Assembly (NCBI GenBank): GCA_964348195.1 | Contig: CAYGBX010000007.1 | Location: forward strand, 4,802-68,801 | Direction: 5' to 3' | Origin: an uncultured Anaerolineales bacterium | Lineage (GTDB): Bacteria > Chloroflexota > Anaerolineae > UBA7937 > JACPPX01 | DNA length: 64,000 nucleotides | Shown: one piece after another, positions 1,103-11,388 of the stretch | Layout: every line of letters starts with the position of its first letter | Position numbering within the stretch: position 1 is the first letter of the stretch | Program-made: the position numbers and the translations under genes | The notes under the pieces: generated by a model | What the model was told of the DNA's origin: nothing | The model's database searches: none | Seen by the model: the letters and a program-made list of their open reading frames with translations, nothing else

Positions 1103-1837
1103 ATGGCGATTACAGAAGATCCTGAAAACTACGAGACCCGCGTCTTGTCCGACCTGGTGGATTTCGCGGGAAAGCGGGTGCTGGAGATCGGCTGCGGAAC
1201 GGGTCGCCTGACCTGGCGCTACGCGGACAAGGCTGCGCACGTCATTGGAATCGATCCGATCGCCGAAGACATCGCGACGGCGAAGGAGAACCGACCGGAT
1301 CGTTTGCGCGACAGGGTCGAGTTCTTGGAAGCCACCATCGAGGGTTACGAACTGCCTGCGGGCGCGCCGAAGTTCGATGTAGCCCTGTTCGCGTGGTCTC
1401 TCTGATGAATCGACCCTGAGGGCATGGTTCATGCCCTGAAGAAAGCGCGTCGCCTGCTGTCATCCGGCGGCATCCTCGTCAACGTTCACGATATCGACGA
1501 TCCGGCGCGGGTGGAGGTTCATGACGGCGCCCGTGTCAGCGTGGCTGGCCGGGTAGTGGACCGATCAGATTTCGACGACGAACGTCAGGCGCTCGCGGCA
1601 GTGGCTCAGGTAGTGGAAGATGGCTTGTTCGTTATGGAAGAAGAGCGCCTCTTCGACCACAACCTTCACGCCGAATCGCTCGACGTCTTGCGCGAGTACA
1701 TCGCTGAGGAATGGGAAAACACGATCCTGCCAGGGGAGACTGCACAGAAGGCTGAGGAGCTCATGAGCCGCGCGGCCGACGACGCGGAGGTGATTGTTCG
1801 CTTCTCCGCTTGGATGGCACGGCTGAGGTCTGCCTGA
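1103..1837 (+). CDS. Class I SAM-dependent methyltransferase with tandem in-frame UGA-UGA (1403-1408), a candidate Sec-Sec selenoprotein (paralogue 1)
   Basis: ORFs 1043..1405 and 1424..1837 share one frame. Joined, they give a complete Rossmann MTase: motif I VLEIGCGTG, then IGID, then FDVALFAWSL-[TGA][TGA]-IDPEGMVHALKKARRLLSSGG. ATG 1103 follows the RBS GAGGAGG. It lies 9 nt after the tspO stop, suggesting an operon. Confidence 0.75.
1419..1437 (+). promoter_or_regulatory. SECIS-like hairpin downstream of the UGA-UGA in methyltransferase 1
   Basis: AGGGCAUG-GUU-CAUGCCCU forms an 8-bp stem with G/U in the apical loop. It starts 10 nt after the second UGA. The nucleotide sequence is identical to that in paralogue 2. 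Confidence 0.5.
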
Positions 1838-4566: not shown

Positions 4567-5328
4567 ATGGCGATCAGAGAGGACCCTGAGAACAACGAAA
4601 CCCGCGCCTTGTTTGACCTGGCTGACTTCAGCGGAAAGGACGTGCTGGAGATCGGCTGTGGCGACGGCCGCATGACATGGCGGTTCGCCAACTGGGCGGA
4701 CCATGTCACGGCCATCGATCCCTATGAGGAAGGAATCAACCGGGCCAGAGAAGACCTCCCGGACGAGCTAGAGGGCCGGGTCGAGTTTCACCATATTGGC
4801 TTCGAAGACTTTGCCGCTGTCAGCCAGCCCTCAACCTTCGATATCGCCATCCTTTCCTGGTCTCTTTGATGAATGGAACACGAGGGCATGGTTCATGCCC
4901 TGGAGGAGATTCATCGCCTGCTCAGGCCCGGCGGATACCTGGTCGAGATTCATCCGTTCCCCGAAGGGTCGCTCCTCAAGGTCCTTAGAGATGGCGAGAT
5001 CCTCTTCGCCGAGCCCAGGCGGCTCTCTGAGGATGAGGACGTGCTGCACGCTGAAGAGGCTGTCGCGGAGGTAGTTGGGCGGCACCTGTTTGTCATCGAA
5101 GACACGGGAGAGTTCGACTTCTTCACCTACGCCTCATCGGTGCCTGAGCTCCGCGAGTTCAAGGAGGAGGCCAGCGCCTACGACGATTCCCCGAAGGACG
5201 AGGCGTTGGAGGCCCGGGAGGAAGAGCTGTACCGCCAGGCTGAGGAGATCATGCAGGCAACCGGGGAGGGAGCGGAAGTCGCCACTCATTCCAGGGCCTG
5301 GATCGGGCGACTCCGGCCGGTGAGGTGA
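4567..5328 (+). CDS. Class I SAM-dependent methyltransferase with tandem in-frame UGA-UGA (4867-4872), a candidate Sec-Sec selenoprotein (paralogue 2)
   Basis: ORFs 4498..4869 and 4873..5328 share one frame. Joined: VLEIGCGDG ... FDIAILSWSL-[TGA][TGA]-MEHEGMVHALEEIHRLLRPGG. ATG 4567 is preceded by AGGAGG. The protein is collinear with the 1103..1837 gene along its full length. Confidence 0.75.
4883..4901 (+). promoter_or_regulatory. SECIS-like hairpin downstream of the UGA-UGA in methyltransferase 2
   Basis: The same AGGGCAUG-GUU-CAUGCCCU hairpin starts 10 nt after the second UGA. The 21 nt GAGGGCATGGTTCATGCCCTG are identical in both paralogues, including all wobble positions. Confidence 0.5.
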
Positions 5329-7706: not shown

Positions 7707-8828
7707 ATGAGAATCCCCCTGATAGCCAGGTTGGCTGTCCTGTCCCTGATCGTGCCGCTCGTAGCATGTGCGAGCCAGCCAACGCCAGTCGCCCCTCCGG
7801 TCGAGGATTCCGGACTCGGGGTGGGCACTCCTGAGCCCGTGGAAACGACGGGCCCCGAAGGTGAGGCGCCGCCGCCTGGGCTGGCTACGCCGGAGCCAAC
7901 CCCGGCGGAGTGCATCCCGATGGTGGAGGCGGCGATTCAGGAGTATCCGATGCCGTCTGGGTCCCATCCTCACGATGTGGCACCGGCGAGGGATGGCGCC
8001 GTCTGGTACACGGCCCAGCATCAGGGCGCCCTGGGCTGGCTCGATCCGATCACGGGAGAGACGCACCACATTCCTCTGGGTGCAGCGTCGGCTCCGCACG
8101 GGGTGATCGTGGGTCCGGATGGCGCGCCCTGGATCACCGACAGTGGCCTGAACGCCATCGTGCGGGTCGATCCGGAGACCCAGGTGGTCGAGATCTTTCC
8201 GTTGCCCGAGAGCGCCGGGAACGCAAACCTCAATACCGCGGTCTTCGACCGCGACGGCGTGCTTTGGTTCACGGGTCAGAATGGTGTCTACGGTCGGTTG
8301 AGACCGGAGACGGGAGAGATGGAGGTCTTTTCCGCTCCTCGCGGGCGCGGTCCATACGGCATCACCACGACGCCGGATGGATCCATCTACTATGCCTCGC
8401 TGGCGGGCAGCTATGTGGGCCATGTTGATCCCGGGACGGGTGCACCCACGGTGCTAGAGCCTCCGACGGCCAACCAGGGCGCACGCAGAGTCTGGTCGGA
8501 CTCTCGAGGGCGGATCTGGGTCAGCGAGTGGAATGCTGGCCAGGTGGCGCTCTACGATCCGAGTGACGATTCGTGGCGGGAGTGGAGGCTACCCGGAGAT
8601 CGGCCGCGAGCCTATGCTGTGTATGTGGACGATACTGACATGGTCTGGCTCAGCGACTTTGGCGGCAACGCGTTGGTGCGGTTCGATCCTGGATCGGAGG
8701 GATTCGAGGTCTTCCCGCTGCCCAGCTCCGCCGCGCAAGTTCGACAACTGCTCGGTAGGCCGGGCGAGGTATGGGGGGCCGAGTCCGGCACCGACAAGCT
8801 CGTGGTGATTCGTACACACTCCTGCTAG
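7707..8828 (+). CDS. Secreted/lipoprotein beta-propeller, virginiamycin B lyase (Vgb)-like
   Basis: There is a signal peptide with a lipobox-like LVAC. Repeated blades of the form P.G...GPDG..W.TD/..G.I.R.DP.TG are typical of COG4257 streptogramin-lyase-like proteins. Confidence 0.7.
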   Translation: MRIPLIARLAVLSLIVPLVACASQPTPVAPPVEDSGLGVGTPEPVETTGPEGEAPPPGLATPEPTPAECIPMVEAAIQEYPMPSGSHPHDVAPARDGAVWYTAQHQGALGWLDPITGETHHIPLGAASAPHGVIVGPDGAPWITDSGLNAIVRVDPETQVVEIFPLPESAGNANLNTAVFDRDGVLWFTGQNGVYGRLRPETGEMEVFSAPRGRGPYGITTTPDGSIYYASLAGSYVGHVDPGTGAPTVLEPPTANQGARRVWSDSRGRIWVSEWNAGQVALYDPSDDSWREWRLPGDRPRAYAVYVDDTDMVWLSDFGGNALVRFDPGSEGFEVFPLPSSAAQVRQLLGRPGEVWGAESGTDKLVVIRTHSC

Positions 8829-8905
8829 TTTGAGTGGTAGACGCTCTGAGGAGGGCTGTGCCCCGAGGGAGGTGCCCTCAGCCATATGGGAAAGGAGAGA
8901 GGTTC

Positions 8906-9199
8906 ATGCCCACCTACATCACGCTGGGCAACTTCACCCAGCAAGGGATCGAGAAGATCAGGGAGAGTCCTAGCCGATTGGATGCGGCCAAGGAGAGCTT
9001 TGGATCCATGGGCGCCGGGATCAAGGACTTCTACCTGGTCATGGGCCGGTACGACCTGGTAGTTGTGTCCGAAGCGCCCGACGATGAAACGGCGACAAAG
9101 CTGGCCATGGCGACCGGTTCTCTAGGAAATGTCCGCACCGAGACCCTCCGGGCCTTCACCGAGGACGAATACCGGCAGATGATTGCCGAGCTGCCCTAA
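8906..9199 (+). CDS. GYD domain protein
   Basis: MPTYITLGNFTQQGIEKIRESP.R ... GRYDLVVVSEAPDD matches the GYD family. An RBS (AAAGGAGAGAGG) lies upstream of ATG 8906. Confidence 0.8.
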   Translation: MPTYITLGNFTQQGIEKIRESPSRLDAAKESFGSMGAGIKDFYLVMGRYDLVVVSEAPDDETATKLAMATGSLGNVRTETLRAFTEDEYRQMIAELP

Positions 9200-9412
9200 G
9201 CTGGTTGCTTCGCCGTCTGCTGAACACCATCTGGGCACCTCCCTCAAAGACATGGCCAGGCACCTGCAGCTCGGACCATACCCGCGGCGGTCAAGCTTCA
9301 GCTCGAGATCCCAGAACACCTGGAAATGGTGGATGGCAGGCTCGACGAAATCGAGGACCTCCTCGCCCCCACTGCTCAGGAGGATTTCTGGCGGGATGGT
9401 GAAGGGGCGAGG

Positions 9413-9949
9413 ATGCTGACGGAGGAGATCGAGGCTCCGGACTTCACACTCCCTCAGGTGGATGGGCCACCCATCACGCTCAGTGAGACGCTTGGGAAGG
9501 GCCACCACGTCTATCTGATCTTCCTTCGCTATCTTGGCTGAATACATTGACTAGAGCATGTGGTGCAGGTGTACCACTCCAGAGATCAATTTCAAGCCCG
9601 ACGGGTCCGCGTTCTTGTCATTGGATTCGAGAAGGAGGAACGGGCGCGGGACTGGATCCGCCGAGCGCAGGTGTCTTTCCCCCTCCTGATTGATCTCGAT
9701 CGCGTCGTGTATCGAGCCTACGGAATCGAGAGATCGATATTTCGGTCCTGGCATCCTCGCAATCTCTGGTTCTACTTCAAGCGATTCCTCAGGGGGCAAG
9801 GAATCTCAATGTTCAGGGCTGACCCAGCCCAGCTCGGAGGGGACGTTCTCATTGATCGACAGGGAAGGATTCGGTGGAAATACGAAAGCAGAGATGCGAC
9901 CGATAGACCTTCAGTCCAGGAGCTCCTGGCAGCAACTGACAATCTCTAG
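9413..9949 (+). CDS. Peroxiredoxin-like (AhpC/TSA, SelL-like) thioredoxin-fold protein with redox motif encoded as UGA-I-H-UGA (UxxU)
   Basis: ORFs 9326..9541 and 9560..9949 share one frame. Joined: APDFTLPQVDGPPITLSETLGKGHHVYLIFLRYLG-[TGA]-IH-[TGA]-LEHVVQVYHSRDQFQARRVRVLVIGF...FPLLIDLDRVVYRAYGI...QLGGDVLIDRQGRIRWKY. The UGA codons (9539-9541, 9548-9550) occupy exactly the CxxC positions. The start could be 9326 or 9413. Confidence 0.8.
9560..9577 (+). promoter_or_regulatory. SECIS-like hairpin downstream of the UxxU codons
   Basis: GUGGUGC-AGGU-GUACCAC forms a 7-bp stem (one G.U pair) with an AGGU apical loop resembling the E. coli fdhF SECIS loop. It starts 9 nt after the second UGA. Confidence 0.5.
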
Positions 9950-10034
9950 TGCTAGTGGGGCGGGGCAGGTCCCTGTGGCCCATGGGGACGCGCGTGACTG
10001 GCCGAAGGGACAGCCAGCAGTGTAGGAGGTTGCC

Positions 10035-10343
10035 ATGGGCAATGACGAGGACCGAGTTGTCGTTGAAAATGTGAATGTGCCTGGCTCGACAGCTCGTGTG
10101 AGCGCCAAAATGTACTATGCCATGCGTCGAGCGATGGAGAAGGTGCTTCCCTCAAAAGAGCCGGGCTTGACTCAGGCGGAGATCCGCGAGGCGGTCGTCC
10201 CTCATCTTCCCGAAGCCCTCTTTCCCGGAGGTGCCAAGGCGGGGTGGTGGGCCAAGACCGTGCAACTTGATCTCGAGGCCAAAGGCGAATTGGCTAGGGA
10301 GGCGACGAAGCCGCTGCGGTGGCATCTAAGGCGCAGCAAGTGA
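10035..10343 (+). CDS. Hypothetical protein (102 aa)
   Basis: ORF with an upstream AGGAGG and coding-like composition. I recognise no confident family. Confidence 0.5.
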   Translation: MGNDEDRVVVENVNVPGSTARVSAKMYYAMRRAMEKVLPSKEPGLTQAEIREAVVPHLPEALFPGGAKAGWWAKTVQLDLEAKGELAREATKPLRWHLRRSK

Positions 10344-10423
10344 TGGATAGAGCCTCGCCACTCGTGGAAACCCCGGTGCCTTGCCTCCCCTGACAGGCGG
10401 GCTGGCGACAGGAGGGCACTTGA

Positions 10424-10834
10424 GTGGCGCGGCCAATGTATGAGCAATCTAGTCCACAAGCGTCAGGAAAGGCGGGCAACGAGACGATGTCCGAACCTGA
10501 AGGCCCGGGCGAGATTCCGGAAGACATGGAGCTTCTCTACCTCGGCCTCCTGAGACGCGGTCCGCTCTGGACCCCTGAGGTGACACCTGAGGTTGAGGCT
10601 CTCCAAGAGGCTCACCTGGCCAACATCGCTAGGATGAAGGAGTCCGGAGAGTTGCTTGTCGCAGGTCCATTTGGCGACGATGGCGACCTGAGGGGCGTCT
10701 ACATCTTTCGTGTCGGGTCGCTTGAAGAGGCTCTCGCTCTCACCAAGACCGATCCGTCCGTGAAGGCCGGGCGACTGGAATTCGAACTGCACCCTTGGTG
10801 GGTGAAGAAGGGCGTCTTCGGCGAACAGAGCTAG
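10424..10834 (+). CDS. YciI-like (YCII-related) domain protein
   Basis: The core LLYLGLLRRGPLW...AHLANIARMKESGELLVAGPFGDDGDLRGVYIFRV.SLEEALALTKTDPSVKAGRLEFELHPWW fits the YciI family. The start is uncertain (10424, 10487 or 10526). Confidence 0.65.
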   Translation: MARPMYEQSSPQASGKAGNETMSEPEGPGEIPEDMELLYLGLLRRGPLWTPEVTPEVEALQEAHLANIARMKESGELLVAGPFGDDGDLRGVYIFRVGSLEEALALTKTDPSVKAGRLEFELHPWWVKKGVFGEQS

Positions 10835-10869
10835 AGGAGCGATCTCAGATCGCCCTATCAGTGAGTGGA

Positions 10870-11187
10870 ATGAGTAAGGCAGCCGCGGGCGGTGTGCTGG
10901 CGATCCTCCTGCTGGTCGTGATCGCTTGGGCCCCCTGGATGACCCCTCGGCGGGCTGAGTTGCTGGTGGTCGAGGCGTTCGTTTCTGGCTGGCAAGGCGT
11001 AGTCGACGGCTGCGGATTCGATTGTGAAGGCTGCGGCGCACGGCATGTTCGACGCATGATTGTCGGGTACTCGGTGGACATTGAGTATGCCTGCGGGTTG
11101 CTGCCCTACGACTCTCCTGAGTTTCATTTGACCGAAACCGCCTACGTCTCCCCATTCGGTACGATTCACGGTCTGAACACACCGTGA
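10870..11187 (+). CDS. Hypothetical small membrane-anchored protein
   Basis: There is an N-terminal TM helix (GGVLAILLLVVIAWAPW) followed by a Cys-containing domain (CGFDCEGCG). No family is recognised. Confidence 0.45.
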   Translation: MSKAAAGGVLAILLLVVIAWAPWMTPRRAELLVVEAFVSGWQGVVDGCGFDCEGCGARHVRRMIVGYSVDIEYACGLLPYDSPEFHLTETAYVSPFGTIHGLNTP

Positions 11188-11388
11188 GACTGATGCCCAG
11201 CTCGGCTGAAGAGGCGGCATGAAATCGAGCCAGATTGGAGACAGGTTGCTGCATCTGTCGGACCGCGAACAGTGGCGGGCCTGGGTGAGGGAGCACCACC
11301 GGTCCGACACGGTGGCATCGGAAAGCGCTATTGATGTAGAGTCCCGCGCATCCTGAGGTTCGAGGAATCGGATCGAAAAGGGGGTCGT

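Follow-up and report, generated by a model that had tools for sequence, protein, structure and literature searches.

A SelL-related thioredoxin-fold gene from an Anaerolineae bacterium with a predicted U-I-H-U motif and one in-frame SECIS-like hairpin

Described UxxU proteins and the Anaerolineae gene

The closest described system is SelL, in which both selenocysteines (Sec, U) are said to be inserted and to form a diselenide, reportedly demonstrated in the protein. Bacterial SelL reportedly uses one in-frame SECIS, placed so as to serve either or both UGAs, and the work of 2007 is said to have found SelL-like relatives in which one or both Sec are replaced by Cys. SelL is a Prx-like protein with a UxxU motif, known from fish, invertebrates and marine bacteria according to the passages of PMC2397514 and PMC2398784 that cite Shchedrina et al. 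(2007, PNAS 104:13919), and the GOS study places UxxU sequences in its "Prx-like 2" family (PMC2398784). Among prokaryotic selenoproteins, excerpts of PMC13188914 and PMC9312934 give a "Prx-like thiol:disulfide oxidoreductase" (PF00578) with UxxC or UxxU and one or two Sec, and an "AhpC/TSA family protein" (PF13911/cd02970) with UxxS. These entries show the same Pfam domains and the same repertoire of UxxU, UxxC and UxxS as the relatives of the gene described here; as they were matched by motif and domain descriptions, we infer from this that the subfamily is the same. NCBI, for its part, gives the name "SelL-related redox protein" to distant relatives of about 300 residues.

The gene lies in the window—the whole 64-kb stretch of DNA that was analysed, from an Anaerolineae (Chloroflexota) MAG (Table 1). 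It shares with SelL the Prx-like thioredoxin fold, a UxxU at the place of CxxC, one SECIS-like hairpin for two UGAs, and relatives with Cys instead of Sec, and it scores above the cut-off of the NCBIfam model NF040769; it differs from SelL by its origin, SelL coming from fish, invertebrates and marine bacterial reads. The link to SelL is through the NCBI "SelL-related" model, and the diselenide is, for the window protein, a prediction. The gene is a further member, from Anaerolineae/Chloroflexota, of an already described and curated family. The first-pass annotation had indeed held that the family was not new: UxxU SelL and Prx-like selenoproteins with one SECIS were described in 2007-2008.

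Table 1. Features of the two-UGA redoxin gene and of the tandem-TGA methyltransferase genes (coordinates of the window)
Feature	Position	Strand	Details
Two-Sec SelL-related / Prx-like-2 thioredoxin-fold selenoprotein CDS (predicted)	9413..9949	+	178 residues; predicted Sec43 and Sec46; stop TAG 9947-9949
UGA-1, predicted Sec43	9539..9541	+	Place of the N-terminal (nucleophilic) Cys of CxxC
UGA-2, predicted Sec46	9548..9550	+	Place of the C-terminal (resolving) Cys of CxxC
In-frame SECIS-like hairpin	9560..9577	+	Stem 9560-9566 / 9571-9577 (7 bp); loop AGGU 9567-9570
SAM-dependent methyltransferase, tandem in-frame TGA-TGA	1103..1837	+	TGA 1403-1405 and 1406-1408; hairpin 1419-1437
SAM-dependent methyltransferase paralogue, tandem in-frame TGA-TGA	4567..5328	+	TGA 4867-4869 and 4870-4872; hairpin 4883-4901

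The ORFs 9326..9541 and 9560..9949 share one frame, and the sole stops between them are the TGAs 9539-9541 and 9548-9550, separated by ATA CAT, i.e. Ile-His; on this the sequence agrees with what had been read at first. The read-through translation runs ...VYLIFLRYLG*IH*LEHVVQVYH... up to the terminal TAG, and with Sec the product would be HHVYLIFLRYLG-U-I-H-U-LEHVVQVYHSRDQF. Because homologues begin 5-15 residues ahead of their APDFTL motif, ATG 9413 is the likely start, as initially proposed, and the alternative ATG 9326 is less likely. Past UGA-2 (9551..9946, + strand) the third-position GC is 0.61, against about 0.70-0.80 in most neighbouring genes, which could reflect a foreign origin, or else RNA-structure and codon constraints.

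A second, independently made assembly at NCBI (GCA_011771555.1, WWBG01000337.1, "Anaerolineae bacterium") has both TGAs too; over window 8287-11338 its identity is 99.3-100%. The window and the NCBI contig (L046) also show differences: an indel of about 26 nt at window 8543-8572 (L046 257-260), inside the Vgb-lyase-like gene 7707..8828, and a further gap in the second aligned piece. The public gene calls at this locus (L046) consist of a 126-aa C-terminal fragment called "redoxin domain-containing protein" (9560..9949, +), an N-terminal ORF of 71 aa and, in antisense, one of 141 aa (9122..9547, -); the latter gives no Pfam match and is probably spurious. The selenoprotein is mis-annotated in public records.

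Other ways to account for the in-frame TGAs were considered and ruled out. An alternative genetic code is one of them, TGA being an ordinary stop that ends 18 of the 39 window genes of at least 200 aa; readings as two separate genes or as a sequencing error are ruled out by the conservation of the TGAs across loci and by the independent assembly.

Relatives, motif variation and the in-frame hairpin

The 25 closest database proteins are all fragments of ~130 residues that start just past the second TGA; two of them begin with VHCLEHVV and MSCLEHVV, and are thus UxxC forms. The DNA of relatives comprised 16 genome loci and 29 metagenome loci. The genome loci come mostly from Chloroflexota MAGs (Anaerolineae, Promineifilaceae, Dehalococcoidia, Dehalogenimonas), the others being from single Pseudomonadales, Myxococcales, Gemmatimonadota and Longimicrobiales MAGs. 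Counted over the 37 loci where the motif region is present, the first codon is always TGA (37/37), while the fourth is TGA in 15, TGC or TGT in 17 and TCG in 5, i.e. 15 UxxU, 17 UxxC and 5 UxxS forms. The UxxU versions are UIHU, ULHU, ULPU and ULFU, and they belong to at least three sequence-distinct subgroups (UIHU/ULHU, ULPU and ULFU). The first-pass annotation supposed that a clear bacterial example was still uncommon; this did not hold, since with 15 of 37 loci UxxU is not rare within the family.

With the C-terminal 132 residues as query, HMMER run exhaustively gave 932 relatives, 209 of which reach E<=1e-10. Those of full length (about 175-195 residues) have at the motif a CxxC (GCVPC, GCIPC, ACLLC, GCLPC and others) or degenerate versions of it, and the position of UGA-1 is occupied by Cys in P0032, P0038, P0048, P0054, P0086 and other full-length homologues. 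Cys counterparts of a UGA are the classical criterion for a selenoprotein; as each of the two UGAs has such counterparts, both count as Sec codons on that criterion.

Two sequences of this collection deserve a separate mention. A UPAS-type locus of a Chloroflexia MAG (L005:2986-3060, CAWKAJ010000001.1) has an extra in-frame TAG 18 codons past the UGA (ELN*LNAAIL), and could be either a pseudogene or misassembled. In P0124, of 230 residues, the N-terminus of a SelB-like translation-factor GTPase (MIVATAGHIDHGKT...DVPGHERF...) is joined at "...LACLPCQAHLLEV" to the C-terminal part of the present redoxin family, so that SelB-like and SelL-like sequence stand within one record; the contig or the gene call is probably chimeric.

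It might be objected that the locus was once a CxxC redoxin gene and that its two TGAs arose by nonsense mutation or by error, which would make it a pseudogene or an artefact of assembly or sequencing. The public annotation, a 126-aa fragment plus small ORFs, would agree with this, as would the additional in-frame TAG of L005. However, the independent assembly has the same TGAs, and the 37 loci, which come from several phyla, have TGA-1 in 37 and TGA-2 in 15 cases with their flanking frames intact; besides, the downstream hairpin covaries, as detailed below. The conservation across loci effectively refutes this objection, which we hold to be next to impossible. Very probably 9413..9949 genuinely encodes an oxidoreductase of thioredoxin fold that belongs to the SelL-related (Prx-like 2 / AhpC-TSA_2) family, with its CxxC written U-I-H-U and both UGAs read as Sec via one hairpin.

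This hairpin, GUGGUGC-AGGU-GUACCAC, had been noticed on first reading 9 nt past the second UGA, and it is indeed present there and covaries in relatives. It has 7 bp including one G-U, with -9.2 kcal/mol, and its loop AGGU is made from the Gln codon CAG and the next GUG. UGA-1 and UGA-2 precede the stem by 18 nt and 9 nt, which gives UGA-to-loop distances of 25 nt and 16 nt respectively. No second SECIS-like element was found at the gene, leaving one hairpin for both UGAs.

The bacterial SECIS consensus of bSECISearch, as given in an excerpt of PMC13188914, comprises a loop of 3-9 nt, a stem of 4-16 bp, a G as the first or second loop nucleotide, frequently with G or U after it, a distance of 16-37 nt from UGA to loop and an MFE <= -7.5. 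The window hairpin agrees with this model from both UGAs, by its loop, its stem, its energy and its two distances, that of UGA-2 being the lower limit of the published range; the SECIS prediction is thus in line with what the first reading had suggested. Among 35 relatives, 24 have a hairpin that conforms to the model with a perfect stem and MFE <= -7.5, as do 14 of the 15 UxxU forms, versus 6.6% of all TGA triplets of the window; its loop is AGUU or AGGU in 21 of these 24. The strict scan gives the other 11 relatives an imperfect or slightly shifted stem. As for the window hairpin itself, only 2.8% of the window's TGA triplets are followed by one as good. The local fold, taken over 60 nt, does not stand out by its stability (z = -1.30), and Rfam gave no match, either for the whole window at gathering threshold or for 9480-9660 at E<=10; bacterial SECIS elements are poorly covered in Rfam. 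Because of this z value and of the missing Rfam match, we consider the hairpin by itself to be weak evidence, the weight of the argument being on conservation and covariation.

The ungapped alignment of 35 distinct sequences, 75 nt long from UGA-1, contains a 7-bp helix in columns 22-28 / 33-39 and a loop AG[G/U]U. Paired cells make up 89.4%, whereas a shift of the 3' arm by 1-3 columns lowers this to 17-59%. Changes on both sides, i.e. compensatory, are found in 6 of the 7 pairs; the doubly changed cells number 38 versus 14.4 expected from shuffles, and none of 500 shuffles reaches 38. RNAalifold recovers the inner five pairs. The amino acids encoded by the two arms change together (V-V...Y-H, V-S...R-H, L-A...R-E, A-A...C-A). 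The loop Gln codon is invariant in Sec forms, but is found in only 4 of 12 CxxC forms, and this points to a constraint that would be exerted at the RNA level and be specific to the Sec forms.

A resemblance of the loop to that of the E. coli fdhF SECIS had also been claimed, and the two elements do share the heptamer UGCAGGU (the fdhF sequence was verified in 5413 E. coli genomes). Both are in-frame hairpins lying just past a UGA, with G-G-U in a loop of 4 nt; the spacing between UGA and stem is 9 nt for UGA-2 of the window and 11 nt for fdhF. On the other hand the fdhF SECIS has a bulged U and a loop GGUC closed by A-U, whereas the window hairpin has no bulged U and a loop AGGU—AGGU or AGUU in relatives. 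Unlike that of fdhF, it would serve two UGAs, with 18 nt between the stem and the invariant UGA-1.

Both UGAs would be read as Sec by SelB·GTP·Sec-tRNASec, recruited by the single 18-nt hairpin inside the CDS. The first recruitment would take place with UGA-1 in the A site and the stem 18 nt downstream, the second one three codons later, with UGA-2 in the A site and the stem 9 nt downstream, near the 11 nt of fdhF. With either UGA in the A site the hairpin would still be folded at the mRNA entrance, hence could be used twice within three codons. For the whole family, centred on Chloroflexota, this would mean that a single 18-nt hairpin in a fixed place directs the recoding of a UGA lying 18 nt before its stem and, where the motif is UxxU, of another UGA only 9 nt before it, the same SECIS thus acting twice within three codons at spacings 9 nt apart; to this general scheme we give an even chance.

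The decoding might also be limited to UGA-1, the only one efficiently read as Sec, with UGA-2 mostly terminating or being read by another route, so that the main product would not be a diselenide protein. UGA-1 is invariant while UGA-2 is interchangeable with Cys or Ser, the distance between hairpin and UGA-1 is the same in UxxC and UxxS forms, so that the hairpin may have evolved for UGA-1, and its 16 nt put UGA-2 at the margin of what the SECIS model allows. Against this, termination at UGA-2 would remove the 132 residues that follow, which contain most of the conserved domain, and the occurrence of UxxU in at least three sequence-distinct subgroups implies that it is functional; the 9 nt between UGA-2 and the stem differ little from the 11 nt found in E. 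coli fdhF; and in SelL both Sec are reportedly inserted and joined in a diselenide. We find a restriction to UGA-1 quite improbable, and prefer the decoding of both UGAs as Sec.

Fold, active site and expected chemistry

The product had been assigned at first to a redoxin/Prx-like family of thioredoxin fold, and the profile searches (U taken as C) bear this out. The joined protein matches NF040769 "SelL-related redox protein" with 147.9 bits (E 2.2e-43, model positions 2-172 of 173), above the curated cut-off of 120 bits. Its top match in Pfam is AhpC-TSA (1.8e-16), over residues 36-183 of the protein started at 9326 and with both TGAs inside the match; AhpC-TSA_2 is also found (6.6e-15). The nearest solved structure by sequence is ResA of B. 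subtilis (E 1.8e-7), and U43 and U46 align exactly with both Cys of its CPHC/CEHC. The UxxU thus sits, as had been stated, at the CxxC place of redoxins, since it aligns with the CxxC of ResA as well as with that of the full-length homologues.

Further evidence for the fold is an AlphaFold model of the Cys homologue P0032 (41% identical, motif GCVPC), taken as a stand-in for the window protein; it has a pLDDT of 95 and a pTM of 0.91, and its first Cys (C42) caps helix 43-53 at the N-terminal end. By fold the model comes closest to ResA, Bcp (Bcp4), AhpE and the human prostamide/prostaglandin F synthase 9usa, of AhpC-TSA_2 type. The likeness to ResA (PDB 1st9, 3c71, 3c73) extends to the fold (E 5e-10), and the CxxC corresponds to U43-x-x-U46 residue for residue. 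At the same time ResA, at 16-17% identity, is a membrane-anchored and extracytoplasmic Cys thiol-disulfide oxidoreductase of cytochrome c maturation; the window protein differs from it by an extra helical insertion (the WHPRNLWFYFKRFL region) typical of AhpC-TSA_2. No signal or anchor is evident in its sequence, and it would be cytoplasmic. Human PRXL2B (PDB 9usa) has an AhpC-TSA_2-type fold and a CxxC (C44/C47), and gives a TM-score of 0.72, among the highest, and 23% identity, the highest among the fold matches; it is however eukaryotic, has Cys and acts on a known lipid, a substrate that nothing suggests for the window protein.

Could the protein be a genuine peroxiredoxin, i.e. a peroxidase with Sec46 as the peroxidatic residue, as in the TxxU Prx selenoproteins? 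The top Pfam match AhpC-TSA is in favour of it, the best fold matches include Bcp and AhpE, and when the protein is aligned with Bcp 2cx3, a peroxiredoxin, the peroxidatic Cys comes opposite U46 and the Ser three residues before it opposite U43. But the typical active site of Prx/Bcp, P-x-x-x-T/S-x-x-C(U), is not found: the residue three before is a Sec instead of the Thr or Ser of P-x-x-x-T-x-x-C, and the last position is Ser in 5 relatives. The fourth position of the motif is therefore dispensable and the first one invariant, which is the opposite of what a Prx requires; moreover, the best matches by sequence and by fold are to ResA, and the family model is SelL-related, not Prx. Peroxidase activity of this kind appears unlikely to us. 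The initial description as "peroxiredoxin-like" can be kept for the fold and the family; it does not seem to extend to the chemistry, given the invariant Sec at the first CxxC position.

The chemistry looks instead thioredoxin- or ResA-like. The invariant first Sec, the U/C/S exchange at the fourth position and ResA as nearest structure together favour a thiol/selenol-disulfide exchange of thioredoxin type. Sec43, at the N-terminus of helix alpha-1, would be the nucleophile attacking an oxidised substrate, and Sec46 would resolve the intermediate, giving an intramolecular diselenide; this is expected because Sec43 has the nucleophilic and Sec46 the resolving position of CxxC. UxxC relatives would form a selenenylsulfide, and those with UxxS would depend on a thiol from outside. 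The sequences show the intact gene, its family, the place of the UGAs on the CxxC and the conserved, covarying hairpin; the insertion of Sec at each of the two codons, the diselenide, the reductant and the substrate are what we infer.

Selenocysteine use in the organism and interest of the family

Scanning the window for TGA codons followed by a SECIS-like hairpin revealed two further genes, paralogous SAM-dependent methyltransferases each with a tandem TGA-TGA (Table 1). Their motif is SWSL-U-U-M/I, the Pfam domain Methyltransf_25 spans the stops in both, and an identical 8-bp hairpin, AGGGCAUG-GUU-CAUGCCCU, follows the TGA-TGA in both; no NCBIfam model is above cut-off for 1103..1837 or 4567..5328. 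About 20 full-length homologues have SWSL-CC at the TGA-TGA site, and about 100 database matches are C-terminal fragments cut at this site. Related loci have UU (TGA-TGA) in Nitrospiraceae and Armatimonadetes MAGs, and CU (TGY-TGA) in a Methylomirabilales MAG and in L050. All the Sec forms keep a hairpin GGGCAUG-GUY-CAUGCCC, which encodes E-G-M-V-H-A-L, a peptide that several CC forms do not have.

In its table, the part of a 2026 review consulted here (PMC13188914) names MduS, ArsM and UXPK-star as methyltransferase selenoproteins, and no vicinal-UU methyltransferase figures among the selenoproteins of that part. The tandem-UGA methyltransferases may be an undescribed selenoprotein family, and might be more novel than the SelL-like gene itself.

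The Sec machinery was searched in the window, which is a fraction of the genome: selA, selB, selD and tRNA-Sec were not found in these 64 kb (ARAGORN, Rfam; Pfam on 20 ORFs). A generic scan for TGA-joined ORFs of high third-position GC gave only off-frame noise. The two methyltransferase genes, with their conserved in-frame TGAs, their Cys counterparts and their own hairpins, nevertheless seem to give independent, if indirect, support to Sec decoding in the organism, as judged from comparison of sequences. The genes next to the redoxin in the window encode GYD, DUF6958, YCII, DUF1801 and HAD proteins; in the window and three other loci no conserved gene neighbourhood was found, the neighbours being unrelated, and these loci give neither an operon nor a hint of a substrate.

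This gene brings no new kind of biology, the family, the UxxU motif and the use of one SECIS for two UGAs having been published in 2007-2008. It is a clean and well-supported bacterial case of a two-selenocysteine redox motif with its decoding hairpin. Its value is in part corrective: the public 126-residue fragment can be fixed, and fragments of ~130 aa dominate the database matches of the family. It is also comparative, as the 37 loci—with their invariant first Sec, their U/C/S fourth position and a fixed, covarying hairpin whose loop holds a Gln codon—provide material on Sec/Cys exchange and on SECIS spacing. If one hairpin is truly used twice at spacings 9 nt apart, the family would be a natural test case for the rigidity of the SelB-SECIS-ribosome geometry, and the repeated U/C/S exchange would supply a natural series in which a single scaffold carries a diselenide, a selenenylsulfide or a mono-selenol at its active site.
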